This document shows, one piece after another, positions 10,047-56,565 of a DNA stretch of 64,000 nucleotides. Within the stretch, counting starts at the first letter, position 1. Each line of letters opens with the position of its first letter. A program made the position numbers and the translations under genes. The DNA is from Patescibacteria group bacterium (GTDB lineage Bacteria > Patescibacteriota > Patescibacteriia > Magasanikbacterales > GWA2-37-8): contig JBAZNA010000001.1 of assembly GCA_041649475.1 (NCBI GenBank), positions 197,022 through 261,021 of the forward strand. Reading direction: 5' to 3'. The notes beneath the pieces are model-generated. The model ran no database searches, was not told the DNA's origin, and saw nothing but the letters and a program-made list of their open reading frames with translations.

Positions 10047-10075
10047 TTGACAAAAAAATATTTTTAGTGTATTCT
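10047..10075 (+). promoter_or_regulatory. sigma70-like promoter TTGACA-N17-TATTCT driving G+C-rich ORF a
   Basis: Consensus -35 hexamer with 17-nt spacer. A 5'UTR hairpin (CCCGGACC...GGTTCGGG) and a GGAAGGAG RBS lie before the ATG at 10150. Confidence 0.5.
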
Positions 10076-10149
10076 TGGTGATTATTCCTTAGGTAAGGAA
10101 GCCCGGACCATTCCGGTTCGGGTATGATGATAGAGGAAGGAGAAAAAAG

Positions 10150-10497
10150 ATGGGAATGCGCGCGAAGGACTGGGAGGCGGCCCAGGCCGTTTTCTTGAAA
10201 GAGGCCGGTGCCGACCCTGACCCCGACGATTCGTGGACCGTAGTTCGGTCGCCGAGTTTGCAGGAGCTTCTGCTGGCAAAGGAGCAGGAGTTCCCGGTTG
10301 AGCTCGAGCTCTCCGACGGCCGCAAGATGACCGTGTTCGTCGAGGATATCAAGGACCCCGACGCGCACGGCGAAGTGGAGGTGTACGTAATGTACGTCGC
10401 CAACGGCAACCGGCGCCGGCGGTACCTGCACTTCACCCCCGACGTCTACGAGCCCAGGGTCAACGTCTACCCCGAGCCCAAGGAATCCGTGGGCTGA
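10150..10497 (+). CDS. hypothetical protein, compositionally foreign (G+C-rich cassette a)
   Basis: 115 aa (MGMRAKDWEAAQAV...) with a GGAAGGAG RBS 7 nt upstream and G/C-ending codons. Followed by terminator GCCCAAGC-ATCT-GCTTGGGC + T7 (10521..10548). No motif recognised. Confidence 0.5.
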   Translation: MGMRAKDWEAAQAVFLKEAGADPDPDDSWTVVRSPSLQELLLAKEQEFPVELELSDGRKMTVFVEDIKDPDAHGEVEVYVMYVANGNRRRRYLHFTPDVYEPRVNVYPEPKESVG

Positions 10498-10587
10498 CCC
10501 CACTTCCTCCCTCGTCTCACGCCCAAGCATCTGCTTGGGCCTTTTTTTGTTGATTTTGTTATGGCTTTCGGGTAAGATACGAGCACT

Positions 10588-13500
10588 ATGCCCGACTTTG
10601 TTCACCTCCATGTCCACAGCCATTATTCGCTTTTAGATGGCCTGCCAAAAATTGACGAGCTAGTTAAGCATGCCAAAAGTTTGGGCATGACTGCCCTTGC
10701 CCTCACCGATCATGGTAATATGTATGGCGCCATTGAGTTTTATGAGCGGTGTCAGAAAGAGGGAATAAAACCGATCATCGGCATGGAGGCATACTTGGCT
10801 CCGGGCAGTCGTTTTGATAAAAATCAAAATGACAAGTATTATCATCTGGTGTTGTTGGCTTTGGATTATACCGGTTATAGAAATTTGATGAAGCTGGCTT
10901 CGCTGGCTCATCTGGAGGGGTTCTATTACAAACCCCGTGTTGATAAAGAACTTCTAAAACAATATCATGAAGGTTTGGTTGCTTCATCTGCCTGTTTTGG
11001 CGGCGAGATTCCTTGGATTTTGCGCAAAGAAGATAATTTTGAGAAAGCCAAAAAAGTGGCGTTGGAATACGAAGAAATTTTTGGCAAAGGAAATTTTTAT
11101 CTGGAACTGCAGGACTTGCCGGGTTTGGAAGGTCAGATGGAGATGAATACAAAATTAATTAAGCTTTCCCAAGATACTGGCGTCCCGCTTATTGTCACCC
11201 GTGACGTGCATTATTTGAAACCGGAGGACGCCGAAGCCCAGGATATTTTAACCTGCATCCGCGACGGCCGGACTTTGGATGAACCCAATCGCCAGACCAT
11301 GAATGCGGTTGATTGTTCAATGGCTAGCGTCAAAGAAATCGCCGGCCGCTTTAAACATATTCCTGAAGCATTGGAGAACACGGTTAAGATTGCCGAAAGA
11401 GCGAATCTGGTTTTAGAACTTAATAAATGGCATTTTCCGCCTCTTGAGCTTCCGGTCGGGCAGACCGCCGACAGTTATTTGCGCGAGCAGGTTTATGAAA
11501 GATTGCCGAAGCTGTTGCAGATAACCGAGGAGGTGAAAAAAAGAGTTGACTATGAGTTGGAAATTATCGCCAAAAAAGGTTATTCTCCGTATTTTTTAAC
11601 AGTTGCCGATTATGTGCAGTATGCGCGCGACCACGGCATTGCCGAAACGACCAGGGGCTCGGCTGCTGGTTCAATCGTTTCTTACGCTATAGGAATCGTC
11701 ACTGTTAATCCGCTGTATTTCAAATTGCCGTTTGAAAGATTTTTAAATCCATTCCGTCCCAGCCCGCCGGATATTGACGCGGACTTCGCCGACGACCGCC
11801 GCGACGACATGATTGCTTATGTCACGCAAAAATATGGTGCGGACAAAGTGGCGCAGATTATTACCTTCGGAACGATGATGGCGCGCGGAGCGGTGCGCGA
11901 TGTGGGCCGAGCGCTGGGCTATACCTATTCTTTTTGCGATCAGATTTCAAAAATGATTCCTTTTGGCGCGCAGGGTTTTCACATGAATATTGCCAAAGCC
12001 ATGGAGCTGGAGCCGGATTTAAAAAAATTATACGATCAAAATCCGCAAGCCCACCGTTTATTGGATTTGGCGCAAAAAGTGGAGGGCTGCGCCCGACACA
12101 CTTCCATACACGCGGCCGGAGTGGTGATTTCACCGACGCCGCTTACGGATTTTACTCCGGTTCAGCGCGAAACCGGCGGTGAGAGAATTACCACTCAATA
12201 TGAAATGCACGCGGTGGAGGCGGCTGGAGTTTTGAAAATGGACTTTTTGGGGATCCGCAATTTATCTATTTTGGGTCATGCCGTGGAAATTATAGAAAAA
12301 ACAACCGGCCAGAAAATTGATATCTACAAATTGCCCTGGGATGACAAAAAAACCTATGAAATGCTGGCGCGCGGTGAAACTATCGGTGTGTTCCAGCTTT
12401 CCGGATCTGGCATGACCAGATATTTGAAAGAATTAAAGCCGGCCAGCATCTTTGATATTATGGCCATGGTGGCACTGTTTCGCCCCGGGCCAATGGAATC
12501 AATTCCCGAATATATAAAAAGAAAAAATCATCCGGAACTGATTGAATATCTTGATCCGCGCATGGAAAATTATCTTGATCAGTCCCTGGGCTTGATTGTT
12601 TATCAGGACGACGTTTTGCTTACGGCTATAAATTTGGCCGGATACAATTGGGAGGAAGCGGATAAATTCAGAAAAGCGATGGGCAAGAAAATTCCGGAAG
12701 AAATGGCCAAGCAGAAAGAGAAATTTTTTAAGGGCTGCCGTGAATTCGGGCATTTGTCCGAAGCAAAAATCAACACCCTGTGGGAACGCATTGAGCCGTT
12801 TGCCGCTTATGGTTTTAACAAGGCCCATGCCTGCAGTTATGGAGTTGTGGCCTATCAGACCGCCTATCTGAAAGCTAATTTTCCGGTGCAGTATATGACC
12901 GCGATTTTGATTGCGGAAAGCGGCGACATTGATAAAGTGCCGGAAATTATTCATGAGTGCGAGAGAATCGGCATAAAGGTCTTACCGCCCGATGTTAATG
13001 AAAGTTTTAAAAATTTCGCCATGATTTCGCCGGAAGACGGATCCGAGCCGCACATTAGGTTCGGTTTAAACGGCATAAAAAATCTGGGCGAGCATATTGC
13101 CGAAGTGATTTACCGCGAACGCAAAGAACATGGCACGTATAAAGACCTGCAGGATTTGCTCACGCGTGTAAATGATAAGGATTTAAACAAAAAGTCCCTG
13201 GAAAGTTTGGCTAAATGTGGCGCGCTTGATTGTTTTGGCCATGACCGGGGATTGCTTTTGGCCAACACGGACAACCTTTTGGGTTTTGTCAGGCAGATGC
13301 ATGAGAAAACCCAATCAAACCAGAATTCGCTTTTTTCAGGCACAACGATTGATTTGTCCGCCAAAGTTCAGCTTAATCCGGCGCCCCTGGCCGATGAAGC
13401 CGACAAGCTGATTTGGGAAAAAGAATTGCTGGGACTCTTCGTCACTTCCCATCCATTTAAGTATTTTGAAAAAATTATGAACGGCGTGCTGACACCGATT

Positions 13501-14055: not shown

Positions 14056-15037
14056 GGTCGGCCTTAAGGTTCCGCCAATTTGTAAAATCTTCTTTAAGGG
14101 TATGATAATATCCGGCCACGGCAATCATGGCCGCGTTGTCCATGCAGTATTTTAAGTCCGGATATTTTATGTTGCTGCCGGAAAGTGCATCGGCGAAGGT
14201 TTCCCGCAGTTTTAAATTTGCGCTCACGCCGCCGCCAACCACGATTGTCTTCGGCCGGAATTCTTGCACCGCTTTGACGGTTTTAGAAACCAAAACATCA
14301 ACAATGGCCTGTTCCAAACTGGCGCAAAAATCTTCCAGTGTAATTTTTTTATTGATTTTATGATCTCTTAACCAATAAAGAGCCGAGGTTTTCAGTCCGG
14401 CAAAACTAAAATTATAATTATCATCATTTATCATCGGCCGCGGAAATTTTATCGCCTGCGGATTTCCGTTTTTTCCCAGTTTAGAAATTTGCGGACCGCC
14501 CGGATAGGGGAGATCAACCAGCTTGGCCACCTTATCAAAACATTCTCCGGCTGCGTCGTCACGGGTCGCGCCCAGTAGTTTATATTGCCTGGGTTTTTTT
14601 ATTAAAATTAATTCGGTATGGCCGCCGCTCACCACCAAACACAAAGCTGGAAATTCTATCTTGGAGTCGGCCGCGATCTCCGTAGAATAAATATGGCCTT
14701 CAATATGATTTACTGCCACCACCGGAATTTTTAAAGCGTACGATAAAGTTCTGGCCGCTTCCACGCCTACCAATAATCCGGTAATCAGCCCGGGTCCGGC
14801 CGTGACCGCAATCGCATCCGGCTGGGGCTGGTTTTCCAAAATGAGTTCAATCAGCGGCGTAATTTTTTCCGCATGCGCCCGGCCGGCGATTTCCGGCACC
14901 ACCCCGCCGTATTTTTTGTGAATGTCAATTTGCGAAGCGGTTTTTTCCGATACCACAACGCAACCTTGGCTTGAACAATTGAGCAAGGCCACCGAAGTAT
15001 CGTCACAGGAACTTTCTATACCAAGAATAAGCATATT
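14036..15037 (-). CDS. tsaD: tRNA N6-adenosine threonylcarbamoyltransferase TsaD
   Basis: MLILGIESSCDDTSVAL is the canonical TsaD/Kae1 N-terminus, with metal-binding His motifs. The ORF track extends the start to 15151, but that 38-aa extension runs into the G+C-rich cassette and is judged spurious. Confidence 0.8.
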   Translation of the reverse strand, partial: NMLILGIESSCDDTSVALLNCSSQGCVVVSEKTASQIDIHKKYGGVVPEIAGRAHAEKITPLIELILENQPQPDAIAVTAGPGLITGLLVGVEAARTLSYALKIPVVAVNHIEGHIYSTEIAADSKIEFPALCLVVSGGHTELILIKKPRQYKLLGATRDDAAGECFDKVAKLVDLPYPGGPQISKLGKNGNPQAIKFPRPMINDDNYNFSFAGLKTSALYWLRDHKINKKITLEDFCASLEQAIVDVLVSKTVKAVQEFRPKTIVVGGGVSANLKLRETFADALSGSNIKYPDLKYCMDNAAMIAVAGYYHTLKEDFTNWRNLKADPNWKIV

Positions 15038-15117
15038 TTTCGCAATACCGAATTTCCTATTTAGAAACTCGGTATTACGGAGGAAGACGTGTGTCTTCCT
15101 CGACTCCTTATGTCTCC

Positions 15118-15576
15118 TTATGGCCAGTTGAGTTCCGCCGGCATAGGCCAATCACTGGCGTCGAAACTCACGAATCCCGGCGTCCATTTGAACTTGGACG
15201 CTTCTCCCGGACCAGAAGTGCCCGTGAGCTCGTGAATTTTTTTAGAACTGAGCACCTTGAGCGGCGACATCTCTTTCGGCTCCGGGCTATCGATAGTGGC
15301 CTGGAGAGAATAACCAATCCCTTTCGTGGGATTGTAGAGGAGAAGTTGCGTGGCGACTTTTGCCCGTTTGTGCTCAAGGCAGTCCCACACCATCTTCAAG
15401 AGCGGCTTCTCCACTACGACCACAGGTTCATTATCCTCTGCAGTCAGAGCTGGGAATACACCCATCAGTCCGTGTTCGATCAGCAGTAGGTAACCGTACC
15501 GAAGCTGCCATCCGCTCAGATCCTTTTCGAAGATGCTTCCCAGCGCCGGTCCTTGTTTGCTCATGGTTTCCTCCAA
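15118..15576 (-). CDS. hypothetical protein, compositionally foreign (G+C-rich cassette b)
   Basis: 152 aa (MEETMSKQGPALGSIF...). RBS GGAGG, then 5 nt, then ATG. Starts 21 nt after the 3' end of tRNA-Met and is followed by a perfect hairpin GAGGAAGAC-GTGT-GTCTTCCTC (15080..15101). Confidence 0.5.
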   Translation of the reverse strand: MEETMSKQGPALGSIFEKDLSGWQLRYGYLLLIEHGLMGVFPALTAEDNEPVVVVEKPLLKMVWDCLEHKRAKVATQLLLYNPTKGIGYSLQATIDSPEPKEMSPLKVLSSKKIHELTGTSGPGEASKFKWTPGFVSFDASDWPMPAELNWP

Positions 15577-15597
15577 GATCGAGATCGTTTTCCCGAG

Positions 15598-15671
15598 TGT
15601 CAGGGGAGGGAGTCGGACCCTCGACCTTAGGGTTATGAATCCTACGCTCTTACCAACTGAGCTACCCTGAC
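15598..15671 (-). tRNA. tRNA-Met (anticodon CAT; elongator versus initiator not resolved)
   Basis: Hand-folded cloverleaf: acceptor GTCAGGG/CCCTGAC, D-arm GCTC-AGTTGGTAA-GAGC, anticodon loop TTCATAA, T-arm GAGGG-TCCGACT-CCCTC. TTGACT-N17-TATACT promoter upstream on the minus strand. Confidence 0.8.
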
Positions 15672-15755
15672 ATTACCGAAAGTATACAAAAAAAAATGGC
15701 TTTAGTCAATGTTGATTTTGGCTCTGTTCTGTGATAGTGTAAATTCAATAATTTT

Positions 15756-16796: not shown

Positions 16797-16834
16797 CTTT
16801 CACCGAATTTTCTGGTATCATAATGCCGCACTAT

Positions 16835-16909: not shown

Positions 16910-16912
16910 ATA

Positions 16913-16944
16913 CAAAAGATTCCGGAGAACCGGAATCTTTTGTT
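16913..16944. terminator. bidirectional terminator AAAAGATTCCGG-AGAA-CCGGAATCTTTT
   Basis: Perfect 12-bp inverted repeat with A/T runs on both sides, between tRNA-Glu (+) and the convergent lipoprotein gene (-). Confidence 0.6.
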
Positions 16945-16955
16945 ACGGGCGATGG

Positions 16956-17840: not shown

Positions 17841-18013
17841 ATGACCAAACATCAAGGCGTCTCAAGCGGAATCTACGGCCTGGCATTCATCGGCGCTCTT
17901 ATTTATTATATCCAACACGCCACCACATTCTGGATGGGCGTGCTGGGATTTTTGAAGGCCCTGGTTTGGCCGGCATTTTTGATTTATAAATTGTTGGAAT
18001 TTTTACACATGTA
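17841..18013 (+). CDS. small hydrophobic protein (57 aa, two predicted TM helices)
   Basis: MTKHQGVSSGIYGLAFIGALIYYIQHATTFWMGVLGFLKALVWPAFLIYKLLEFLHM. Below the ORF-track size cutoff. An extended -10 TGtgaTATAAT lies upstream, and a hairpin terminator at 18020..18055 is shared with the convergent gene. Confidence 0.3.
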
Positions 18014-18073
18014 AATATAAAGATCCTGTTGCTTCGCAAGCAGGATCTCTTTTTCTCCTTTCACATTATCCTT

Positions 18074-18400
18074 TCACAGGACCACTTCTTCGTAGTAGTC
18101 GGCCCGCTCGTGGCTAGCGTAGGGGCTTGATTTGGCATCCTTGAGCGCAGCTGCGGCGAACGGTTCGTCTATGGTGACCTCGGCAACGTTCTCGCACTTG
18201 GCGATCAACAGCTGACAACCATCACAGCCGAATCCGGTCACGGTTGCCAGAACCAGCGCCTCCTTGATCTTCGGTACCCGGCCCTCTTTGCGGATGGCTT
18301 CGGCCACATCGGCCGCGTTTTCTCCACCGCAGTCGGTCCAGAACTTGAAAACAACCTCATCACCCTTGCGCACACTAACGAGTCCGGTTTTTCCGTGCAT
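18074..18400 (-). CDS. hypothetical Cys-containing protein, compositionally foreign (G+C-rich cassette c)
   Basis: 108 aa with four Cys (C..., GCDGC, KC). AAGGAGG RBS with 7-nt spacer begins immediately after the TAA stop of the upstream FAD-oxidase gene. A hairpin terminator follows. Confidence 0.5.
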   Translation of the reverse strand: MHGKTGLVSVRKGDEVVFKFWTDCGGENAADVAEAIRKEGRVPKIKEALVLATVTGFGCDGCQLLIAKCENVAEVTIDEPFAAAALKDAKSSPYASHERADYYEEVVL

Positions 18401-18411
18401 ATCACCCCTCC

Positions 18412-19713
18412 TTAGGTAACTTTACATGTTTTTTCATAAAGATCAAGAAAAATATCCTCCGGGTCAGTTTTCTTTTTAACCGCGTAATAATTATCTTTGT
18501 TCCAGGTTTTCCAAAAGTCATCTTCCGAATAATAGTTGGTGGAAATCAAGGTTTTGATGCCGCCAATAGCCATCAATTCTTCCTCAAACATTTTGTAATA
18601 GTTTTTGTCCGGCCGTTTTGGCAGTCCGTAGATGGCCAGATCTAAAAACAACTCGTCTTTCATTTTTTCAAAAAATTCTCCGGAAATCCATTCATAATGC
18701 CGGGCAATTTTATAAGGCACGCACCATAAAGGGAAAAAATTTATCTCTTTTTCATACCATTTCATAAAATTTTCACCTTCAGAAAACGGGATGAAGGTGT
18801 CAACCGTTACTGGTATCTTATCAGCCGGGATAACTTTGCGAAATTTTTGCACCAGTTTTAATAAGCTTGAAGAATTAATAAATTTACCAAAAAACAAACG
18901 TCCCAGAAATGATTTTGGGGTGACATTGGTCACACCTTTGTCATAGCGGAAAAAATAATCAATGGTTTTAAGATAATCTTCTTTTCGTATTTTTGTGCTT
19001 TTATAATATACCCTCATCCAGTCATAACTGTGGGTGTAGGGCGCCGTGTCAACAAAATTTCCTGTACTTAATACTAACTCGGTGGGGGAATGGATTATAC
19101 CATCCATAAAATCAACATCTTTTTTGGTGTAGTGATCCCAGATGGTAGCTTTATACTCCTTAATATCCACACATTTTTGATAAGTGACTTTAACAAACGG
19201 CTTGGCCGGAACCAATCTGAATTTGAGTTTAGCCAGAAGGCCCAAAGTGCCAAAGGTGCCGTGTATCATTTGAAATAATAAACTGTTGTCATTATCCGGA
19301 GAGCAGGTCAGAACCTCGCCTTGCGCGGTAATAATCTCATATTCCAGACAAGTGTCGTGGAAACCCCCATATTTGTATGACATTGATTCTAATGAACAGC
19401 CGGAAACCGCGCCACCGATGGTAATTGTTTTCAGTTCCGGTACAACAATCGGCACCAGGCCATATTTCAGAGTGGCTGTTGCCAAATCTACAAAAGTTAC
19501 GCCTGATTCGGCAACACAAGTCCGCGCATCAGGGTCAATACTGATAATTTCATTTAAATCACTGATGTCAATTTCTTCATTCCAGTATTTCTGTTCTTCA
19601 GGTTTGGGCACTACATGAGAAACCGCTTTCTTTTTAAATAATACCGGCTTGCCGTTTTTGTGCGCTTTCAGCTGTCCGGCAATTCTTTCAATTTTTTGTG
19701 CATGAGTTATCAT
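18412..19713 (-). CDS. FAD-binding oxidoreductase (PCMH-type FAD-binding domain; DHCR24/alditol-oxidase-like)
   Basis: 433 aa with an FAD-binding segment ...TIGGAVSGCSLES... and a substrate-domain C-terminus. Confidence 0.65.
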   Translation of the reverse strand: MITHAQKIERIAGQLKAHKNGKPVLFKKKAVSHVVPKPEEQKYWNEEIDISDLNEIISIDPDARTCVAESGVTFVDLATATLKYGLVPIVVPELKTITIGGAVSGCSLESMSYKYGGFHDTCLEYEIITAQGEVLTCSPDNDNSLLFQMIHGTFGTLGLLAKLKFRLVPAKPFVKVTYQKCVDIKEYKATIWDHYTKKDVDFMDGIIHSPTELVLSTGNFVDTAPYTHSYDWMRVYYKSTKIRKEDYLKTIDYFFRYDKGVTNVTPKSFLGRLFFGKFINSSSLLKLVQKFRKVIPADKIPVTVDTFIPFSEGENFMKWYEKEINFFPLWCVPYKIARHYEWISGEFFEKMKDELFLDLAIYGLPKRPDKNYYKMFEEELMAIGGIKTLISTNYYSEDDFWKTWNKDNYYAVKKKTDPEDIFLDLYEKTCKVT

Positions 19714-25822: not shown

Positions 25823-25928
25823 AAATGATTTTAGTTTTTTAAATTCGGTTGAATACATTATAACATAAAAAAAGAGGCAATTCCACCGGCGGCAGAACTG
25901 CCTTGAAACCTTCTTCTGGTCTTCCTCC

Positions 25929-26282
25929 TTAGGTGTCAACCGTCTCCACCGGAGGGTTGGGCACTGTTGGCCCCCAGAGAGGGACGAATTCCGTGCTCTG
26001 GAAGTTCTTGCGACACAACTCTTCAAGACCAGGGGTATCGCCATCGTAGATGACCCGGGAGGCCGTAATCACGGCCCGATCCTGCTTGGACCCGAACCCC
26101 ATCTGGGCGGCCAAGTTGTAGGCGTTCCTAGCCGAAGGGGCTTCACCGTTTTTTTGCACTTCCGCGCGAATTGCGTCAGCAAAACGCTTGGTGAGATTGC
26201 CGCCGCGGCCAACCACAACTTTCATCAAAACCACGTCGCCTCGGAAAACGATGACCATTCCCGGAACAGCAGTCGTGGACAT
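25929..26282 (-). CDS. hypothetical protein, compositionally foreign (G+C-rich cassette d)
   Basis: 117 aa (MSTTAVPGMVIVFRGDVV...). AAGGAGG RBS with 7-nt spacer, TTGACA-N17-TAAAAT promoter at 26319..26347 (minus strand), and a hairpin plus T-run downstream. Confidence 0.5.
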   Translation of the reverse strand: MSTTAVPGMVIVFRGDVVLMKVVVGRGGNLTKRFADAIRAEVQKNGEAPSARNAYNLAAQMGFGSKQDRAVITASRVIYDGDTPGLEELCRKNFQSTEFVPLWGPTVPNPPVETVDT

Positions 26283-26318
26283 GGAGAATCCTCCTTATCG
26301 CAAACAAAGCGATGTTCA

Positions 26319-26347
26319 ATTTTAACATGGGAATTTGCCAGTGTCAA
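26319..26347 (-). promoter_or_regulatory. sigma70-like promoter TTGACA-N17-TAAAAT for cassette d
   Basis: Read on the minus strand; lies between the HU terminator hairpin (about 26365..26395) and the cassette RBS. Confidence 0.45.
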
Positions 26348-26407: not shown

Positions 26408-26683
26408 TTATTTCAAAGCATCCTTTAAGGCCTTACCAGCTTTGAATTTTGGTACGGTCACGGCTGGGATTTGGATCTTTTGAGAAGGATTTTGTGGGTT
26501 CACACCCTGGCGGGCAGCGCGCTTTTTAGCGCTGAAAGCGCCAAAACCTGTCAAAACAACCTCTTCGCCTTTCTTTAACATGTCAGTAATTACCTCTACC
26601 ATTGAGTTTAGAGTATCTTCTGTCTGTCTCTTTGGTAAATTTAATTTTTCGGCTATAGCTTGAGCTAAATCTGCTTTATTCAT
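26408..26683 (-). CDS. hup: DNA-binding protein HU
   Basis: 91 aa: MNKADLAQAIAEKLNLPKRQTE...GFGAFSAKKRAARQGVNPQ... with the HU arm motif. Confidence 0.85.
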   Translation of the reverse strand: MNKADLAQAIAEKLNLPKRQTEDTLNSMVEVITDMLKKGEEVVLTGFGAFSAKKRAARQGVNPQNPSQKIQIPAVTVPKFKAGKALKDALK

Positions 26684-28801: not shown

Positions 28802-29440
28802 TTATGTTAAATTTATTGCGTTTTTTAAATAGTTTTCACCAATAGCCGTCCGTTCCAGTTCCTCGCAGTAAGCGCCAATGCCGAGTTTTTCGCCAATATC
28901 ATTGGCCAGGGAACGGATGTAGGTGCCTGTAGAGCATTTTACCTCAATTTTTAGAATTGGCCAAGAGTAGTCAAGCAGGTTGATTTCGTAAATTTCAATT
29001 TCGTTGGGCTGACGTTCAATTGTTTTGCCCTGTCTGGCCAGTTTATACAAACGCTGGCCGTTGATTTTTTTGGCTGAAAACATCGGCGGGGTTTGCAATT
29101 GTTTGCCGATAAAAGATTTTAAAATTGATGAGATGGTTTTTTTATCTGGAATTTTGGTTGGGTCTTTGGTTGGGTTTTGGTATTCGGAAATTTTGCCGGT
29201 CTTGTCATAAGTGTCAGAGGTTGCACCGAGTTTAATGGTGGCAATATATGTTTTCGGCAATTGTTTGAATTCATCCAATTTTTTAGTGCAGTCGCGGCCG
29301 ACGCCGACAATCAAAAGACCGGTCGCGAACGGATCAAGGGTGCCGGCATGACCAACTTTGATTTTTTTGTCGGTCCGGATATGCGCCACTACATCATGAC
29401 TGGTCCAGCCGGCGGGTTTGTTGATAAATAGAAATGGCAT
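28802..29440 (-). CDS. truB: tRNA pseudouridine(55) synthase
   Basis: GWTSHDVVAHIR...GHAGTLDPFATGLLIVGVG catalytic Asp motif. Confidence 0.85.
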   Translation of the reverse strand: MPFLFINKPAGWTSHDVVAHIRTDKKIKVGHAGTLDPFATGLLIVGVGRDCTKKLDEFKQLPKTYIATIKLGATSDTYDKTGKISEYQNPTKDPTKIPDKKTISSILKSFIGKQLQTPPMFSAKKINGQRLYKLARQGKTIERQPNEIEIYEINLLDYSWPILKIEVKCSTGTYIRSLANDIGEKLGIGAYCEELERTAIGENYLKNAINLT

Positions 29441-29580
29441 ACTATCCCTGCATTATAAACATAATTTTAAAATAAAAAAAGAGCTTCCCTGGGGAGGGAA
29501 GTTCAGTGGGGGTTGGCTCCGGTGTGATCGCCTGATGGCGAATTGGAGCACGGTAGGAAAGAGCAGGGCGGGGCGGCTGG

Positions 29581-29922
29581 CTAGCCGGCGGCGGAAGCGG
29601 CGATGGGGGCGATCTTGGGCTGGATGTCGATCACGGGGATCGGCTCGGGCAGACCGTCGAAGCGCTGGCGGAGCCAGTCGATCTCGGGCTCCGAGGCCTC
29701 GCCCATGAAGATCTCGATGTAGAACGTCCCCCTGATGAGGCCCTCGTACTTCAGCTTGAAGCCGGGGATCTCGTCGTCGAAGTCGGCCTTGTGCGGCCTG
29801 TTGACGTACCTGTTGAAGTCGTTGAGCGAGCAGTACCTGACGCTGCCGTCCACGAACTGGATCCGTACGGCCCTTGTCTGCAAGGTCGTGTCCGGGAACG
29901 TCATCAGCTTCTGGATCGGCAT
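29581..29922 (-). CDS. hypothetical protein, compositionally foreign (G+C-rich cassette e)
   Basis: The ORF track extends to 29994 with a TTG start. An internal ATG at 29922 (MPIQKLMTFPD..., 113 aa) is preceded by AAGGAGAGGGAG and is preferred. TTGACA-N17-TACCAT promoter at 30038..30066 (minus) and terminator CTTCCCT-CCCC-AGGGAAG + T7 at about 29470..29500. Confidence 0.45.
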   Translation of the reverse strand: MPIQKLMTFPDTTLQTRAVRIQFVDGSVRYCSLNDFNRYVNRPHKADFDDEIPGFKLKYEGLIRGTFYIEIFMGEASEPEIDWLRQRFDGLPEPIPVIDIQPKIAPIAASAAG

Positions 29923-30082
29923 CTCCCTCTCCTTGGGACTACGAGCTCGTGTGACCATCTTGTTATGCCTCCCTTGTTTCCGTGTTGGGCCCAATGCCCC
30001 TAAACTTGTTGGCCTTGTCCAGGCCGTGATGGGCTAAATGGTATCACAATAATACGATTATGTCAAGAAGAATGGCCAAAAA

Positions 30083-30111
30083 TTGACTAAATGCCAAGAT
30101 AAAGATATAAT
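30083..30111 (+). promoter_or_regulatory. sigma70-like promoter TTGACT-N17-TATAAT upstream of infB
   Basis: Consensus hexamers with 17-nt spacer, 21 nt before the infB ATG; diverges from the cassette e promoter. Confidence 0.5.
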
Positions 30112-30131
30112 ATAGTGTAATTAAATTAGGT

Positions 30132-32156
30132 ATGAATGTCAGTGAATTAGCCAGACAATTACGCGTACATCCGCAGAAACTCCTGCAAATTTTGCCCGAG
30201 TTCGGTTTTGATATTGGTGCGAAAGCAGTGAAGATTGACGACCGTGTAGCCCAACAGATTCAGCGCGATTGGCGAAAAATCAAATATATTATTGATGAAA
30301 GAGAACGCAAGGAGAAAGAAAAGCAGAAGGAACTGGAGAAAGAAGCCAGAAAAAGCACAGGCACTTCTGTGGCCATACCGCAAAAATTGACTGTCCGCGA
30401 ACTGGCTGATGCTTTGCAAATGCCGCCGACAAAACTGATAATGGAACTGATGAAAAATGGCATTCTGGCCACGCAAAATGAAAACATTGATCATGACACA
30501 GCCATGCTTATTGCCCAGGAATTTGGTTTTACCGTGACGGAAAAAACCGAAGACAACCACAAAGAAGACACCCATGTTCAGAATTTGGAAAATATTTTAA
30601 CCAGCGATGCGAGCGGTGAGAACAAAATTGCGCGTCCGCCGGTGGTGGTGGTTATGGGTCATGTTGATCATGGAAAAACAAAATTATTGGACGCGATCAG
30701 AAGCACGAACGTAGTTGATTCCGAGGCCGGAGGCATCACCCAGCATATTGGCGCCTATCAGGTTGTCTGGACCAATCCAAAAACCAAAGAAAAAACTCCG
30801 CTGACATTTATTGACACCCCGGGTCATGAGGCCTTTACGGTCATGCGCAGCCGCGGCGCCAAAGTGGCGGACATTGCCATATTGGTGGTGGCCGCCGATG
30901 ACAGCGTGAAGCCACAAACCATTGAAGCGATAAATATAATGAAGGCGGCCAAACTGTCAATCGTGGTGGCCATTAATAAAATAGATAAAGAAGGCGCTGA
31001 TCCGCAAAAAGTGCGGGTTGATTTGTCTCAACATAATATTATCTCCGAAGAATGGGGCGGCGATGTGCCGATGGTTGAGATTTCCGCCAAGCAGAAATTA
31101 AATATTGATAAATTATTGGATGTTTTACTCTTGGTTGCGGATTTGCATGCCGATGAAATAAAAGCTAACCCGGACAGATCGGCGGCCGGAACCGTGATTG
31201 AGGCCCACGTTGATAAGGGCGAGGGGCCGGTGGCCACAATCTTGGTGCAAACCGGAACTTTAAAAATCAATGATCCGTTGGTGGTAAACGGTGAAATTTA
31301 CGGAAAAGTTAAGGCCATGAGAAATTATAAAGGCGATATTTTGGAAACCGCCGGACCAAGCAACCCGGTTCGTATCCTAGGATTTAAAGTGGCCCCGCAA
31401 GTCGGAGATGTTTTGGATGTCGGCAGTTTTGAAACCGCCACTAACATAAACATAAAAGAAAAAAGATCAAAACAATCCGGAGCCGAACAAGGTTCCGCGT
31501 CCACAGTAGAGGTCACTGCCGAAGGCGAAGAGAAAAAGTTTTTGAATTTGGTGATTAAGGCGGATACTTTGGGGTCGCTTGAAGCCATCATTGGATCACT
31601 GGAAAAAATTAAGAATGACGAAGTGGGCGTGAAGGTAGTGGGGAAGGGTTTGGGCAATATTACCGCCGATGATGTGGCCAAAGCCGAAGCCGCGGGCGGA
31701 ATTATTTGCGGTTTTAATGTCGTGGCTATGCCTAACGCGCAAACCATGATTGCCGACAAAAACATCAGCTTCATGCAATACAAAATTATTTATGATTTGC
31801 TGGATTATATTAAAGAGGAGCTGCAAAAAATGTTAAATCCTGAAAAAATAATAACGGAGCTGGGCGCGGTAAAAATCATAGCTGTTTTTAGAACCGAGAA
31901 AAATTACATGATTGTTGGCGGTCGCGTAACATCCGGCAAACTTCGTAAAGATTGTTTGGTCAAGGTGATACGAAAAGGCGAAGCGGTTGGCGAGGGTAAA
32001 TTATCTCAATTACAAATTGCCAAACAGACGGTAAATGAGGTTGCTGAAGGCAATGAATGCGGAATGCAGTTTGACGGCAAATTACGACTGGAAGCTGGGG
32101 ATGTTTTGGAGGCCTATAAAGAAGAAATCAAAGAGAAAAAATTAATTTTAAATTAA
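30132..32156 (+). CDS. infB: translation initiation factor IF-2
   Basis: GTPase G1 box VVVMGHVDHGKTKLLD and DTPGHEAF, plus the C-terminal beta-barrel domains. Confidence 0.9.
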   Translation: MNVSELARQLRVHPQKLLQILPEFGFDIGAKAVKIDDRVAQQIQRDWRKIKYIIDERERKEKEKQKELEKEARKSTGTSVAIPQKLTVRELADALQMPPTKLIMELMKNGILATQNENIDHDTAMLIAQEFGFTVTEKTEDNHKEDTHVQNLENILTSDASGENKIARPPVVVVMGHVDHGKTKLLDAIRSTNVVDSEAGGITQHIGAYQVVWTNPKTKEKTPLTFIDTPGHEAFTVMRSRGAKVADIAILVVAADDSVKPQTIEAINIMKAAKLSIVVAINKIDKEGADPQKVRVDLSQHNIISEEWGGDVPMVEISAKQKLNIDKLLDVLLLVADLHADEIKANPDRSAAGTVIEAHVDKGEGPVATILVQTGTLKINDPLVVNGEIYGKVKAMRNYKGDILETAGPSNPVRILGFKVAPQVGDVLDVGSFETATNINIKEKRSKQSGAEQGSASTVEVTAEGEEKKFLNLVIKADTLGSLEAIIGSLEKIKNDEVGVKVVGKGLGNITADDVAKAEAAGGIICGFNVVAMPNAQTMIADKNISFMQYKIIYDLLDYIKEELQKMLNPEKIITELGAVKIIAVFRTEKNYMIVGGRVTSGKLRKDCLVKVIRKGEAVGEGKLSQLQIAKQTVNEVAEGNECGMQFDGKLRLEAGDVLEAYKEEIKEKKLILN

Positions 32157-37296: not shown

Positions 37297-38148
37297 ATGA
37301 CAAAAAGGAGGGTTATTTTGTTTTTGTTTGTTATCCTGATAATGATTTTGGTCTTGTTTTTTTATATAAAACTTTCCCGATCCAATCCAAAATTCAGCGT
37401 CACTTTTTTCAACATCGGCCAAGGCGACGCGGCTTTGATTAAATTTAATAACGGTCAAAAAATGTTGGTTGATTGCGGTCCGGACAGAAAAATTTTAGCC
37501 AAACTCGGTGCGGTTCTGCCGTTTTATGACAAAACCATAGATTTTTTATTAATTTCTCATCCGGATGCCGACCATTACGGGGGTTGTGCTGATGTTTTGG
37601 ACAGATATGATGTTAAAAAAATTATTACCAATAGCACAAAAAAAGAAACGGACCCTTATTGGCGATATTTTGACCAAAAAGAAAAACAGGAGGGAGCAAA
37701 GATAAAAATTATGACCGGGCCGGAAGAATGGGTGATTGGTAGTTCAACTTTGGGGTTTTTAAATCCGGACAGCTCGCTCGCTTTGTCTGCCAAGGATGCA
37801 GAAGGGAACAATGCTTCAATTGTTTTTCGCCTGATTAATGACAATGAAAAATTTTTATTTACCGGCGATATGGAGGTTCCGCTTGAAGACGCGCTTGAAC
37901 AAAAGTATTGTTCATCAACCCCGCGTGATTGTCCAGCGCTTAAAGCCGATATTTTAAAAGTCGGCCATCATGGCAGTGATAGTTCTACCGGCCAGAAACT
38001 GCTAAGCGCCACAAATCCCAGAGAAACTATTGTGTCGGTTGGTCAGAACACCTTTGGCCATCCGTCTTTTCGGGTATTAAAAAAGCTGGAACGGGCCAAA
38101 ATAAAGGTGTTGCGCACTGACGAGATTGGTGATATATTTAAGTACTAG
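37297..38148 (+). CDS. MBL-fold metallo-hydrolase (ComEC C-terminal beta-lactamase-like domain as a stand-alone gene)
   Basis: HPDADHYGG metal-binding motif, ...VGHHGSDSS..., and an N-terminal TM helix. Confidence 0.7.
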   Translation: MTKRRVILFLFVILIMILVLFFYIKLSRSNPKFSVTFFNIGQGDAALIKFNNGQKMLVDCGPDRKILAKLGAVLPFYDKTIDFLLISHPDADHYGGCADVLDRYDVKKIITNSTKKETDPYWRYFDQKEKQEGAKIKIMTGPEEWVIGSSTLGFLNPDSSLALSAKDAEGNNASIVFRLINDNEKFLFTGDMEVPLEDALEQKYCSSTPRDCPALKADILKVGHHGSDSSTGQKLLSATNPRETIVSVGQNTFGHPSFRVLKKLERAKIKVLRTDEIGDIFKY

Positions 38149-41855: not shown

Positions 41856-41884
41856 TTGACCAATTGTCTTTTTTATGCTAAAGT
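41856..41884 (+). promoter_or_regulatory. sigma70-like promoter TTGACC-N17-TAAAGT for cassette f
   Basis: Follows the thrS terminator (GCACCC-ATTACC-GGGTG + T-run at about 41815..41845). A 5'UTR hairpin CCTGCC-AGAGAAA-GGCAGG and an AAGGAGG RBS (41917..41923) follow. Confidence 0.5.
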
Positions 41885-41931
41885 ATGTGGTTCCTGCCAG
41901 AGAAAGGCAGGTCAGAAAGGAGGCCTCTCGG

Positions 41932-42312
41932 ATGACACGGGTCATGAGTTTGATGGCTTTCTACGCGACTTATCGTCTCTTAAAGGTCGCGTACCGTGCG
42001 ACCGAGAGACAGCTTAGGCTATTCTTCGTCCCCAAGCCGGGGTGCGAGGGGGCCTACGAGGTGGATGAGCAAATCTTCGCCAAGGTTCGGACGCTCATCG
42101 TCAATTCCAGGTCGTTTCAGACCGAAATCTACCCGCTGAACGCCAGTGACGTGGGGGAAGATTTCCGCCTTGGCGACCAGGATTTCACCGGCTCGGTGAT
42201 GGTCTGGCTGAAGGAAGTAGATCCTTTAGACGCACTGTTTACCGACAGAATCAAGGAGGTTGTGTTCGGAGAGGAGAAAGAGTATCGCTTTCAGTGCGGT
42301 TCCCGCAACTAG
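41932..42312 (+). CDS. hypothetical protein, compositionally foreign (G+C-rich cassette f)
   Basis: The ORF-track start at 41875 would lie inside the -10 box. The in-frame ATG at 41932 sits 8 nt after AAGGAGG (MTRVMSLMAFYATYRLL..., 126 aa). Confidence 0.45.
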   Translation: MTRVMSLMAFYATYRLLKVAYRATERQLRLFFVPKPGCEGAYEVDEQIFAKVRTLIVNSRSFQTEIYPLNASDVGEDFRLGDQDFTGSVMVWLKEVDPLDALFTDRIKEVVFGEEKEYRFQCGSRN

Positions 42313-42406
42313 CATCTGGGCGCTCATCTTCACTCCTCTCCGGGCGCCTTTACTACTTGGACTCGGATTGGTATAATATATTTACTAAAATTTAATTTTA
42401 TATCAT

Positions 42407-44286: not shown

Positions 44287-45174
44287 CTAAAGTTTGATAC
44301 TTTTGAGAGATATTTTTAAATATAAATTTGAAGTCTTGTTTATTAAGAATTTTAATGTTTTGGGCAATACCCTGTCTAATAATGCAAGAAACGAGATAGT
44401 ATATATTAAGGTTAAAAAATTATTTTTAAGTATCGTGATTATAAAATTTGGTTTATAATCCATCTTCCAGAATATTATATAAAGAATAAAATGTAATATG
44501 CAGAAGAATGCTATTGGCCAGAATGGAGCTTTAAAACCAAGTAGATCCCATTTTTCTGGCTCACCGAATTGGTTATTACTTTCGGGCGAGTTATAAATTT
44601 TATCATTCTTCATAATCCTTGACCAAATATCAGTGAATTTGGTTCCAGATATTATAAGTAGTAACCATTGAAAGCAGTCAGATATAAATTTTATAATATC
44701 GGTTATAATTACCCTCCAAAATAATAATTTTAACCTAAGTTTAAAACCCTTTAGTGGCATGGTTGGTTTTGTATGAAGCAAGTATAGCTCGTCGAGTAAC
44801 ATATTTGCTGTTATTTCTTTATTTTTTTTATAAAATTTGTTCAAGATAACATCATAAAAATACTCATCATTTGAAGTAAAATCTATCGGGCCAGTAACTT
44901 TTTTTATTTTATCTTGGTTACTCAATGATATGTAAGATCCTTTGTCATCTTCTTTAAGTTTTCCATAGCTAACCCTTATGGATAGGGGTTTAATGTTGCC
45001 ATCCTTCAGTACATTTTCATTACTGATGTAAATATAGAATATTGATCCCCAATCGTCTGAACCCATTTTTCTAATTATACTAAAGCCAAATTTGCAATCT
45101 TTTAAAGGAGTGAGATTCAAAAATAATCCATTAGTTCCTATATTAAAATCTTTTATGAAATCTTGATTTTCCAT
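44287..45174 (-). CDS. hypothetical membrane protein in a very AT-rich gene (compositional outlier in the opposite direction)
   Basis: 295 aa: soluble N-terminal half, then 3 to 4 TM helices. Codons are dominated by A/T and the gene lies antisense between miaB and miaA. Confidence 0.45.
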   Translation of the reverse strand: MENQDFIKDFNIGTNGLFLNLTPLKDCKFGFSIIRKMGSDDWGSIFYIYISNENVLKDGNIKPLSIRVSYGKLKEDDKGSYISLSNQDKIKKVTGPIDFTSNDEYFYDVILNKFYKKNKEITANMLLDELYLLHTKPTMPLKGFKLRLKLLFWRVIITDIIKFISDCFQWLLLIISGTKFTDIWSRIMKNDKIYNSPESNNQFGEPEKWDLLGFKAPFWPIAFFCILHFILYIIFWKMDYKPNFIITILKNNFLTLIYTISFLALLDRVLPKTLKFLINKTSNLYLKISLKSIKL

Positions 45175-50382: not shown

Positions 50383-50447
50383 TAAAAATTGCCGATAAAT
50401 ATTATGGTATTATACACCATTTTTACGTTCGGCGCACCCGGCAACTG

Positions 50448-51572
50448 TTAATAAGTTTTGTAGATTTGAAGCGTTCTTTTGGCGGTTTCCAGCCAGGAGT
50501 ATTTTTTGAGGATTTGTTGCGATTGTTGGATCAGATTAAGGCGCAAATTTTGGTTAGTAAAGCCGTTATAAAGGGCTTGAGTAATTTCTTCGGGGTTTTT
50601 GGGATCAAAATATAGCGCGGCGCTGCCGAGAATTTCCGGTAAGCAGGCGCTGTTTGCGGAAATTACCGGCACATGGTGGGTCATAGCTTCCAGTGGCGGC
50701 AGGCCAAACCCTTCATACAAGCTTGGGAACACATATAACATGGCTCCGGAGTAGATAGTGTTGAGTTCATCGTCATTTAGATAGTCAGTGAAGATTATAT
50801 TCTTGCATTGTTTAAATTTTTTGCTGTTAATCAAGCGATCATAAAAATAATTTTTCTTGCCAACCAAAATCAGCTGAAAATTGTCGCCGTATTTTTTTTC
50901 AAAATCATGCCAGGCGTCAACCAAGCCCTCCAGATTTTTGTGCGGATAGGCCACGCCGACATATAAGGCGTAGGGTTTGTTAATGTTGAATTTTTTAAAC
51001 AGTTCTTTGTGTGAGATATTATTTTGTTTTTGTTCCTGGGGCTGGGGGGACAGAAGGGTCACGAATATTTTTTGGAGCGGGATTTTAAGGGTTTTATGAA
51101 TGTCTTGTTTGGTAAATTCGGAAGGGGTAATTATTTTTTTGGCTTTTTTTGATATTTTTTTTATTAAAATTTTATGGGCCTGATGTTTAAGCCAATAAAC
51201 AATCACACTTCGCGTGCTGGCGCGGCGCGTCGGATAATGAAAAAGAATTAAATCGTGAATGGTTACCATAAACGGCCCGTTGTAAAAATAGGGGACATTC
51301 CAATGCGGAAAATGCATCAGATCAACTTTTTGCTGTTTTATTATTTTAGGTATCTTCGTTTGTTCGGCCAATCCGTACCAATAAACATCGGCTAAAACTT
51401 TTTTAAAGTTTGAATTGGCGGGCTGAAACTCTTCAAAATTTTCTTTGCGCAAAAAAATAATATATTCATTGGCTGAATCAATTTTTTCCAGATTTTTAAT
51501 CAATTGTTCAATGTATCGTCCCAAGCCGCCTTGTTTTGGGCCATACATTCTGGCGTCTATGCCGATGCGCAT
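50448..51572 (-). CDS. glycosyltransferase family 4
   Basis: GT-B fold with EGFGLPPLEAM (E-x7-E) motif. Confidence 0.75.
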   Translation of the reverse strand: MRIGIDARMYGPKQGGLGRYIEQLIKNLEKIDSANEYIIFLRKENFEEFQPANSNFKKVLADVYWYGLAEQTKIPKIIKQQKVDLMHFPHWNVPYFYNGPFMVTIHDLILFHYPTRRASTRSVIVYWLKHQAHKILIKKISKKAKKIITPSEFTKQDIHKTLKIPLQKIFVTLLSPQPQEQKQNNISHKELFKKFNINKPYALYVGVAYPHKNLEGLVDAWHDFEKKYGDNFQLILVGKKNYFYDRLINSKKFKQCKNIIFTDYLNDDELNTIYSGAMLYVFPSLYEGFGLPPLEAMTHHVPVISANSACLPEILGSAALYFDPKNPEEITQALYNGFTNQNLRLNLIQQSQQILKKYSWLETAKRTLQIYKTY

Positions 51573-51574
51573 AA

Positions 51575-52720: not shown

Positions 52721-52785
52721 AAGCGAAATGAGTGAGAGAAATGAAATTATTTATAATTTCATTTCCGAACGAATGAGCTTATATC

Positions 52786-53130: not shown

Positions 53131-53134
53131 ATAA

Positions 53135-54256: not shown

Positions 54257-54261
54257 ATTTT

Positions 54262-55680: not shown

Positions 55681-55734
55681 AGTTGTGGGCGCGGTGCGCT
55701 TAGGTTGAGTATATTTTACGCCAACTGCCCAACA

Positions 55735-55764
55735 TTGACAAGAGAGCTGTTTTAGTGTTAATTT
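55735..55764 (+). promoter_or_regulatory. sigma70-like promoter TTGACA-N17/18-TAATTT for cassette g
   Basis: Perfect -35 consensus, with AAGGAG RBS 7 nt before the ATG at 55839. Confidence 0.45.
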
Positions 55765-55838
55765 AACGTGCTGTGGCGAAACCATTCTGGCCAAGCCCGA
55801 CAGCGTCTGTAAACACGGTCGTATAAAGGAGACAAAAC

Positions 55839-56504
55839 ATGGCGACCGCAAAACAGATTCCGTTTTTGATGGGAAGGTTGGTGGAGCATCAGTTTTACTT
55901 CTGTGCTTTGTCCACCGCAAGCGCCACGTGGGCGAGCCAAAACCCGAAAGACGCCATTGCCTTGTGCGTGGCGGCGATCGAGAATCGCCAAAAGGAGCGT
56001 CAGTCCGACCCGGCGCCTTCGCCACTCCTCACCTTGGTCGGTGCCGTCGTGATCTGGCTGGCCGTGAGGTTCGTTGCCAGTGAACACCTGGTGAAGAATA
56101 CCGAGAAGAACGCGCCGGTGAAGATTTCCTACATCTTCGATAAGGTCACCGTGTGGTTCCAGGGCAAGATCGAGGAGCGGGTCGAGGGCGAGATGGCTCT
56201 GTGCTGCCATACCCTGAACTCCGACTCGGACGATAACCTCATCATCAACCAGCTCGGCGGCGAGACCAAGGCCGAGACCGCCCTTGCCGAGGTCTTTGCC
56301 TGCTTGGAGAAGCAACCCAACGGCGAGGATGGTGCGCTACTCACTAACGGCCACGCGAACATCTTCTATGTTCGCAACACCGAAGGTGTGTTGTGCGTGA
56401 TCCAAGTGATCTGGCGCGGTGACGGTTGGACCTTCTACACCCGTTCGGTCGGTTCTCTGGACACATGTACCGAGGGCCGCCGGGTGTTCTCCCGCGCCGC
56501 ATAG
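55839..56504 (+). CDS. hypothetical Cys-containing protein with one central hydrophobic segment, compositionally foreign (G+C-rich cassette g)
   Basis: 221 aa (MATAKQIPFLMGRLVEHQFYF...), AAGGAG RBS, terminator GCCCCGCC-N9-GGTGGGGC + T7 at 56521..56555. Confidence 0.5.
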   Translation: MATAKQIPFLMGRLVEHQFYFCALSTASATWASQNPKDAIALCVAAIENRQKERQSDPAPSPLLTLVGAVVIWLAVRFVASEHLVKNTEKNAPVKISYIFDKVTVWFQGKIEERVEGEMALCCHTLNSDSDDNLIINQLGGETKAETALAEVFACLEKQPNGEDGALLTNGHANIFYVRNTEGVLCVIQVIWRGDGWTFYTRSVGSLDTCTEGRRVFSRAA

Positions 56505-56565
56505 TTTGTTCCTTCCTTCCAAGCGCCCCGCCTGTCAGATGGTGGGGCATTTTTTTATCCAAATC

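Follow-up and report, generated by a model that had tools for sequence, protein, structure and literature searches.

Seven small open reading frames (ORFs), here called cassettes c1 to c7, stand out in a 64-kb stretch of a Patescibacteria metagenome-assembled genome (MAG; GenBank assembly GCA_041649475.1, contig JBAZNA010000001.1, positions 197,022 to 261,021; hereafter the window, numbered from its first letter). They are richer in G+C (GC) than all of the backbone genes with which they were compared, each starts behind a strong Shine-Dalgarno (SD) sequence in a genome whose core genes mostly have none, and each lies between two intact genes. We favor the reading, at a probability of about one half, that they are genuine, moron-like accessory genes that occupy intergenic hot spots and derive from a GC-rich gene pool. 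By sequence comparison they fall into several unrelated orphan families and are not one element. Patescibacteria, whose genomes are tiny, live on other cells, and variation between close relatives is a good guide to how they handle hosts and phages. The variable part found here consists of single small genes between housekeeping genes, not of islands with mobility genes.

Composition, translation signals and reality of the loci

The window has a GC content of 43.5%, and its backbone genes (n = 48) have a GC of 0.423 ± 0.038 (maximum 0.480) and a GC at third codon positions (GC3) of 0.442 ± 0.065 (maximum 0.566). The cassettes reach 0.537-0.635 in GC (z = 3.0-5.6) and 0.617-0.929 in GC3 (z = 2.7-7.4), and each of them exceeds all 48 backbone genes by both measures (Mann-Whitney p = 1e-5). 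The impression of the earlier note that seven ORFs are G/C-richer than their neighbors and favor GC-ending codons is thereby borne out, the statistics differing clearly from those of the backbone. Relative to their own genome, the cassettes are elevated by 11-21 GC points and 17-49 GC3 points. The preference is visible in individual codons, with cassettes vs. backbone using ATC at 0.81 vs. 0.26, TTC at 0.85 vs. 0.26 and AAG at 0.69 vs. 0.21. GC at first and second positions (GC1, GC2) is raised as well, by ~0.09 and ~0.06. At third positions A and T are both depleted, about equally, which rules out adenine-specific mutagenesis in the style of diversity-generating retroelements (DGRs) as the source of the GC-richness. 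A mismatch between an AT-like amino-acid composition and a GC-rich donor was likewise dropped as an argument, the rise in GC1 and GC2 being about that of the cross-genome trend for such a GC3 shift, with only c5 falling short.

In all seven cassettes GC3 is far above GC2 and no Rfam family covers any of them; together with the deviant codon usage, this indicates coding sequence and not structured RNA. Nor are they shadows of known genes on the opposite strand, since the long antisense ORFs that accompany them gave no match to Pfam. In 40-nt windows, the step in GC begins at or shortly past the promoter and ends at the terminator. For c5, c6 and c7 the GC-rich block extends approximately from the predicted transcription start to the U-run of the terminator, downstream of AT-rich promoters; in c1 and c4 the leader is not GC-rich.

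The translation signals provide a second contrast with the core that is independent of composition. An SD of 5-7 nt precedes all seven cassettes vs. 7 of 48 backbone genes (Fisher p = 2e-5). The remaining 41 backbone genes are without an SD motif, and many look leaderless. That an SD stands before each cassette start had been recognized in the earlier note, which missed the SD-poor core against which it stands out. The same holds in relatives, where an SD precedes 14 of 18 GC-rich island ORFs but only 3 of 80 starts of core genes (p = 6e-11). At core orthologue starts in relatives, an SD occurs in 0/28 for infB, 0/20 for trx, 0/10 for leuS, 0/7 for truB and 3/9 for rny; the gene for HU is the exception among core genes, with an SD at 31 of 57 starts. 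A strong SD is therefore a mark of the cassettes as a class and not the house style of this genome. Within the window, SD-led genes outside the cassettes include that for HU (26408-26683), one for a 128-aa hypothetical protein (9608-9994) and a gene at 37318-38148. In several core genes the -10 box lies only 5-12 nt from the ATG (e.g., truB at 28802-29440, infB starting at 30132, and the genes at 50448-51572 and 58592-59539), suggesting leaderless or near-leaderless mRNAs.

Promoters of the form TTGAC(A/C)-N17/18-TAnnnT, scoring 9-11 of 12, precede c1, c4, c5, c6 and c7, and c2, which follows tRNA-Met as the earlier note had it, is served by the promoter of that gene. A further promoter, proposed for c3 within the last codons of the upstream gene, did not hold up: c3 has none of its own and, because its SD and the end of the FAD oxidase gene overlap at the stop codon of the latter, it is operonic with that gene. 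The statement that a hairpin follows every cassette, usually with a T-run, stands for c1, c3, c4, c5 and c7, which end in intrinsic terminators with a U-run (fold z = -2.0 to -4.2). It needs qualification for c6, whose hairpin is weak, and for c2, which is followed by two strong hairpins without a U-run.

Chimeric assembly, contamination and deliberate insertion had all been raised as explanations. Six of the seven ORFs, together with their neighbor genes, are annotated proteins of the NCBI MAG (exact look-up; locus tags WC526_01045-WC526_01275, on a contig of 963,177 bp), and c2 is called with an ATG start in the ENA assembly. On re-fetching, c1, c4, c5, c6 and c7 were base-identical in ENA and/or Logan assemblies. 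A 101-kb ENA MEGAHIT contig bears c1 and c6, Logan contigs of run SRR8542065 bear c1, c4, c5, c6 and c7, and the two c1 contigs that were aligned match the window with 100% identity, one over 20.3 kb and the other over 7.3 kb. These assemblies probably stem from the same sample as the window. The stronger argument for reality is that diverged orthologues occur at the same junctions, with conserved flanks, in other samples (SRR22315506, SRR25490521, and SRR25490529). They have diverged along with their flanks (dS, synonymous divergence, of 0.2-0.7), so that all three explanations can be dismissed.

Orthologues and variable sites in relatives

Same-site orthologues of c3, c4, c5 and c6 are present in related populations of other samples (loci and proteins found in the searches carry L and P numbers). 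For c6 and its counterpart in L083 (92% nucleotide identity over 1.9 kb), dS is 0.22, vs. 0.22 for the flanking thrS and 0.40 for the downstream gene. For c3 and L173 it is 0.67, with 0.69 for the FAD oxidase gene; for c4 and L176, 0.41, with 0.51-0.58 for the flanks; and for c5 and L180, 0.20, with 0.32-0.41 for infB and truB. With values this close to those of the flanks at the same sites, c3 to c6 are not chimeras, engineered inserts or recent arrivals, and they were in place before the compared lineages split.

The cassette proteins evolve fast. The ratio of nonsynonymous to synonymous divergence (dN/dS) spans 0.27-1.3 in the four cassettes vs. 0.03-0.17 in their flanks: 0.65 for c6 (flanks 0.04 and 0.13), 0.27 for c3 (0.09), 0.35 for c4 (0.14-0.17) and 1.32 for c5 (dN 0.27; flanks 0.03), the last being a value from 125 codons that may not differ from 1 but is far above the flanks. 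Indels between orthologues are in frame only. The c5 promoter and 5' untranslated region (UTR) are 99.4% identical over 173 nt, and the upstream region of c6 is ~97% identical; c5 has a GC3 of 0.93-0.95 in both orthologue genomes. From these comparisons, the proteins appear to be under relaxed to diversifying selection, with their regulatory regions conserved. Within the 173 nt between infB and c5 (29959-30131) lie the GC-rich leader of c5 and two promoters of opposite orientation; a structured 5'UTR was dropped as the reason for leader conservation, the folding energy being ordinary (z = -0.2).

A metagenome scan with RNase Y yielded 80 related loci in which the order infB-truB-rny-hu is conserved. 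The infB|truB gap, the site of c5, is empty in 10 relatives, being 100-200 bp long and AT-rich there. In others it holds different GC-rich ORFs (L090, with 150 aa and a GC3 of 0.89; L097; L110; L116/L135), and in L127 (7904-8826) it holds a c5 homologue plus a tandem paralogue, each with a GC3 of ~0.9, which indicates that cassettes can duplicate in place. The infB promoter is kept at every site, and the order at occupied sites is promoter, leader, SD, ORF, terminator and truB promoter. The site downstream of hu is similarly variable; in L170 a 239-aa ORF with a GC3 of 0.83 (3119-3838, reverse strand) follows hu. A homologue of c3, also in L170, lies at a different locus, with a TTGACA promoter of its own and a similar terminator. 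GC-rich single-ORF islands are frequent in the ~0.6 Mb of related loci, and nearly all are mutually unrelated. In AT-rich relatives, cassette GC3 tracks the GC of the host: the L116/L135 family has GC3 values of 0.55 and 0.44 in genomes with a GC3 of ~0.3.

Searches of Pfam, PHROGs, NCBIfam, PADLOC and PDB sequences with the seven proteins returned nothing significant, the best PHROG match being a weak one to c4 (E = 0.35). A HMMER scan was run with the seven proteins concatenated, and its best 150 matches were examined. It found a large family for c7 (~1,800 cluster representatives) and one homologue for c6, its orthologue; c1, c2, c4 and c5 matched only themselves among those 150, where weaker matches to them may lie hidden under the c7 family. 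Profile searches of 5.8 billion protein clusters added three members to the c3/c4 family and four to the c5 family. The sole named member of either is from a Patescibacteria MAG, and the rest are on metagenome contigs. The c3/c4, c5 and c6 families thus appear to be confined to this clade.

Organization of the individual loci and the DGR link of c7

The flanks match their earlier description, as judged from Pfam gene context and the RNase P RNA at 56600-56999: every cassette lies between two intact backbone genes. Cassette c1 (10047-10548, forward strand; 115 aa, GC3 0.85) comprises a promoter (TTGACA, 10047-10052; TATTCT, 10070-10075), a leader hairpin (10101-10122), an SD (AAGGAG, 10137-10142), the coding sequence (CDS; 10150-10497) and a terminator (10521-10548). 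Cassette c2 (15035-15709, reverse strand; 148 aa, GC3 0.62) is part of a tRNA-Met - c2 - tsaD transcription unit made up of the promoter (15709-15681), tRNA-Met (15597-15671), an SD (GGAGG, 15570-15575), the CDS (15118-15564) and the two hairpins (15044-15101). Its start was corrected to the ATG at 15564 and that of tsaD to the ATG at 15034 (MLILGIESSCDD), and with the latter c2 and tsaD do not overlap. The hairpin pair between c2 and the tsaD start is very stable (-40 kcal/mol, z = -8) and may serve as a processing or attenuation element in the common transcript.

Cassettes c3 to c5 are also on the reverse strand. For c3 (18013-18413; 108 aa, GC3 0.68), a paralogue of c4, the SD (AAGGAGG, 18407-18413) is followed by the CDS (18074-18400) and the terminator (18013-18048). 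The adjacent FAD_binding_4 oxidase gene (18412-19713, reverse strand) has relatives of 60-74% identity in the candidate phyla radiation (CPR), DPANN archaea, Firmicutes and further phyla. Its neighborhood is not conserved among 80 loci (L003-L082), and it appears to have been transferred widely across phyla. Cassette c4 (25867-26347; 117 aa, GC3 0.67) lies between hu and a pilin gene and has a promoter (TTGACA, 26347-26342; TAAAAT, 26324-26319), an SD (AAGGAGG, 26290-26296), a CDS (25929-26282) and a terminator (25867-25903). Cassette c5 (29474-30066; 125 aa, GC3 0.93) occupies the divergent infB|truB gap, with a promoter (TTGACA, 30066-30061; TACCAT, 30043-30038), the GC-rich 5'UTR, an SD (GGGAGG, 29968-29973), a CDS (29581-29958) and a terminator (29474-29501). 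Its start is probably at 29958, and not at the alternative 29922, because the orthologue keeps the N-terminus MVTRxRSPKEREMP. An AlphaFold 2 model of c5 from five sequences was poor (pLDDT 58).

Cassette c6 (41856-42348, forward strand; 126 aa, GC3 0.72) follows thrS and consists of a promoter (TTGACC, 41856-41861; TAAAGT, 41879-41884), an SD (AAGGAGG, 41917-41923), a CDS (41932-42312) and the weak hairpin (42318-42348). An outlier of the opposite kind, a 295-aa ORF at 44287-45174 (reverse strand; GC 0.28, GC3 0.28; no Pfam match), adjoins a radical-SAM gene and is probably a separate, AT-rich acquisition. Cassette c7 (55735-56556, forward strand; 221 aa, GC3 0.78) is located between a sugar transferase gene and the RNase P RNA gene and includes a promoter (TTGACA, 55735-55740; TAATTT, 55759-55764), an SD (AAGGAG, 55826-55831), a CDS (55839-56504) and a terminator (56525-56556). 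The RNase P RNA (bacterial class A, 175 bits; forward strand) begins ~45 nt past this terminator, and the TTGACA immediately after the terminator is probably its promoter.

The earlier note recognized no motif in the seven proteins. Family searches agree in being negative, but c7 belongs to a family of DGR variable proteins. It appears to combine an N-terminal helical domain with a C-type-lectin-like domain, and its fold matches are C-type-lectin or formylglycine-generating enzyme (FGE)-like proteins, including TvpA and Mtd. A homologue in L084 (P0016) is ~51% identical to c7 by tblastn and 54% in the HMMER scan, and the family profile scores c7 at 284 bits. The gene for P0016 adjoins genes for Avd and a reverse transcriptase (RT), and its last 106 nt are a variable region (VR) paired with a downstream template repeat (TR) from which it differs by A-to-N mismatches, which is the signature of a DGR. 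The last 35 codons of c7 (56397-56501, forward strand) correspond to this VR. Across 81 family members, the hypervariable columns coincide with adenine-containing TR codons (entropy 3.13 vs. 1.15 bits, p = 4e-7). Cassette c7 departs from the family at four scaffold positions, and the 64-kb window holds no RT or Avd gene (tblastn with the L084 proteins) and no TR or other repeat of the c7 3' end. Cassette c7 is thus best described, on sequence grounds, as a homologue of a DGR target family and only possibly as a target of current diversification.

Other members of the family, on a Bradyrhizobium plasmid and a viral contig, have no adjacent DGR. The plasmid (NZ_CP094524.1) is conjugative, and its distant c7-family protein is encoded directly after a NYN-domain gene (4209-5471 of L179); P0130, another member, has a WGR domain fused to it. 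DGR contexts are therefore not the only ones in which the lectin-like domain is used. In L084 (180-712 and 1708-3275) the DGR that serves the c7 homologue adjoins a small two-gene pair that looks toxin-antitoxin-like by eye, and the TR lies within an 84-aa ORF that the Avd gene overlaps on the opposite strand.

Origin of the genes and relation to known systems

In the scenario that we favor, coding segments of a GC-richer, SD-using gene pool would have entered intergenic gaps, and gaps only, because elsewhere the essential genes of a reduced genome would be hit. Entry could have proceeded without a dedicated recombinase, through DNA uptake followed by homologous recombination in flanking core genes, or through illegitimate recombination. 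Uptake is a likely route, the window having genes for ComEC and a type IV pilin. The segments would then have come under AT-rich promoters of native type, and vertical inheritance, exchange among relatives and a partial, slow amelioration would have followed. A foreign source of this kind fits the composition at all three codon positions, the excess of changes from G or C to A or T (S-to-W) over the reverse on the window branch of c3 (18 vs. 8), and the tracking of host GC by GC3. As to function, fast-evolving proteins with conserved regulatory regions fit a role in interactions with a host cell or phage or in conflict with either, conceivably as binding proteins in the manner of c7.

Several observations weigh against this scenario. 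The promoters and spacers are AT-rich and native-looking, and the scenario gives no account of how segments without promoters ended up downstream of good ones at five sites. No GC-rich donor with composition-matched homologues was found for c3/c4, c5, c6 or, among the best 150 matches, c1 or c2; the 5.8 billion protein clusters contained nothing of the c3/c4 and c5 families outside relatives, a tblastn search of the INPHARED phage collection gave no match to any of the seven, and IMG/VR yielded nothing for c1 to c6. For c7, a single-protein scan of IMG/VR found nothing and a scan with the family alignment turned up a single distant relative, at 32% identity, which two viral contigs carry with no RT nearby; the only plasmid match by tblastn was that of its C-terminal domain to the hypothetical protein of the Bradyrhizobium plasmid. 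Integration scars are absent apart from a 12-nt repeat at c1. The composition of individual families is also awkward. In a relative in which core genes have reached saturation at synonymous sites (proportion of synonymous differences, pS, of 0.70-0.74), the c5 family occupies the same gap and still has a GC3 of 0.90 or more. One transfer with subsequent amelioration would not predict this, so that the family resists a single-transfer model. Synonymous differences in c5 number 5/76 vs. 42/266 in its flanks (p = 0.04), and on the L173 branch of c3 changes in the two directions are nearly even (13 vs. 15). In L084, moreover, a GC-rich DGR target homologue accompanies RT and Avd genes that are AT-rich, which hints that GC-richness may belong to the gene class and not to recent arrival.

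Much of this evidence would be expected if the cassettes were a native, specialized class of small, fast-evolving genes kept GC-rich and SD-led, in which case composition would be silent on foreign origin. Responsible for this would be either selection, for example on the stability or structure of the mRNA or for SD-dependent insulation from the SD-less bulk, or GC-biased gene conversion at loci that recombine often. The persistent GC3 and low synonymous divergence of c5, the balanced c3 branch and the L084 homologue all point this way, as do the clade-confined c3/c4 and c5 families and the uniform architecture of ORFs that are unrelated. We nevertheless consider a native class unlikely, if the most serious of the alternatives. 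It has to contend with the S-to-W excess on the window branch of c3, with a GC3 that follows host GC in the L116/L135 family, with a patchy distribution that includes empty sites, and with GC1 and GC2 that are up as well, as under long GC pressure. The gene for HU, SD-led and presumably highly expressed, is not GC-rich.

A broader proposal, which we put forward tentatively and hold to be rather doubtful as it stands, is that of a class, insulated in composition and in translation, that extends across the clade, in genomes with AT-rich core genes that do without an SD. Diverse small orphans, arranged as GC-rich, SD-led promoter-to-terminator modules in recurrent hot spots, would be exchanged or re-seeded within the clade from a GC-rich reservoir, or actively kept GC-rich, and would form a diversifying repertoire against hosts or phages of which DGR lectin-fold proteins are one arm. 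A re-seeding reservoir or active upkeep of GC-rich codons may account for the observations that resist simple transfer and decay, and the question raised is what the source of these genes is, or what keeps their GC high. In either case, GC-rich codons plus an SD make a simple sequence signature with which the accessory repertoire could be found in other genomes of the clade. If the signature marks an effector or defense repertoire, dozens of uncharacterized protein families would be worth study.

An RNA-mediated origin, in which foreign or extrachromosomal transcripts (5'UTR with SD, ORF and terminator) were reverse-transcribed and put behind resident promoters, perhaps with help from the RTs common in these lineages, is very improbable. 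It would account for the extent of the GC-rich block in c5, c6 and c7, from about the transcription start to the U-run, behind AT-rich, native-looking promoters; a relative of c7 is served by a DGR RT, and signatures of DNA recombinases were not found. Against it, neither the window nor ~0.7 Mb of related loci, L084 excepted, contains an RT, no poly(A) tracts or target duplications were seen, and GC-richness does not extend to the leaders of c1 and c4. DGR enzymes, furthermore, replace an existing VR and do not insert genes.

The earlier note had proposed a dispersed, cassette-like mobile family. In its possible forms (integron-type cassettes at secondary sites, elements resembling miniature inverted-repeat transposable elements, or remnants of tRNA-targeting islands), this idea is largely refuted, and we give it very little credence. 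It draws on the uniform architecture with a hairpin after every ORF, on the tRNA gene beside c2, on the c3 family at two different loci and on the 12-nt direct repeat TTCGGGTAWGAT around c1 (TTCGGGTATGAT at 10117, TTCGGGTAAGAT at 10567; shuffle p = 0.005, or ~0.035 when corrected for seven tests). In an all-against-all comparison, however, only c3 and c4 are related (38% identity over 57 residues), and the units share no termini or flanking sequence beyond chance 10-12-mers. The 200 nt that follow each of the seven ORFs contain no attC R''/R' cores (RYYYAAC ... GTTRRRY). With their short, perfect GC stems and their U-runs, the hairpins are intrinsic terminators. No duplicated tRNA 3' end was found at c2 (p = 0.2), and flanking repeats at c2 to c7 are not significant. 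The earlier statement that no integrase, transposase, target-site duplication or shared repeat is visible thus holds in general, no integrase or transposase being found among Pfam annotations that cover most of the window, and is qualified only by the direct repeat at c1, a candidate target-site duplication. An artefact (chimera, contamination or vector, spurious ORFs in GC-rich non-coding RNA, or engineering), to which the sharp discontinuity in composition and the textbook-like expression signals might have pointed, is already refuted by the comparative data: identical assemblies for five loci, diverged same-junction orthologues in three other samples, strong codon periodicity, in-frame indels, a dN/dS below 1 for c3, c4 and c6, no Rfam cover, no phage matches, and a sole plasmid match, that of the c7 C-terminal domain.

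Among known systems, the cassettes differ from genomic islands, integrative and conjugative elements and transposons in that their gene context contains no integrase or transposase families and only the c1 repeat is significant. They resemble integron cassettes as promoter-poor single ORFs with a 3' hairpin, dispersed singly and carrying diverse orphan cargo; unlike these, they have no attC cores, their hairpins are terminators, the window has no integron integrase or attI site, and five units have their own promoters. Likeness to DGR variable proteins, such as Mtd of phage BPP-1, TvpA of Treponema denticola and the targets of CPR and DPANN genomes, is confined to c7 and consists in its homology to P0016 and the variable family columns at TR adenine codons, with a possible C-type-lectin fold in addition. 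With ORFans the cassettes share being short, taxon-restricted and fast-evolving, belonging to no detectable family and showing signs of purifying selection. Prokaryotic orphans, however, match the GC of their genome, or fall below it if virus-like or arisen de novo (10.1101/2023.07.17.549306), and the cassettes lie 11-21 GC points above theirs. Orphans so far above genome GC, with a translation signal absent from the core, are unusual.

Two further systems come closer. Pangenome studies describe chromosomal hot spots of horizontal gene transfer that are flanked by core genes and lack mobile-element genes. As there, the same interval is empty or differently loaded among relatives and an integrase is missing, and the organism has genes for ComEC and a type IV pilin; in contrast, each site here holds a single small ORF and not a multi-gene islet, and the cargo is uniformly GC-rich with a strong SD beside an SD-less core. 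The moron concept of Hendrix and colleagues reportedly refers to promoter-ORF-terminator units between two genes of tailed phages, often of deviant composition. The cassettes are like morons in that one ORF comes with a promoter and an intrinsic terminator of its own, is placed between intact genes, deviates from its neighbors in composition and brings no mobility gene. They are unlike them in that c2 and c3 have no promoter of their own, that c1 to c6 are without a phage homologue and the c7 family has one distant relative in IMG/VR, and that the units lie among chromosomal housekeeping genes (dnaE, tsaD, infB, truB, and thrS) and not in a prophage.

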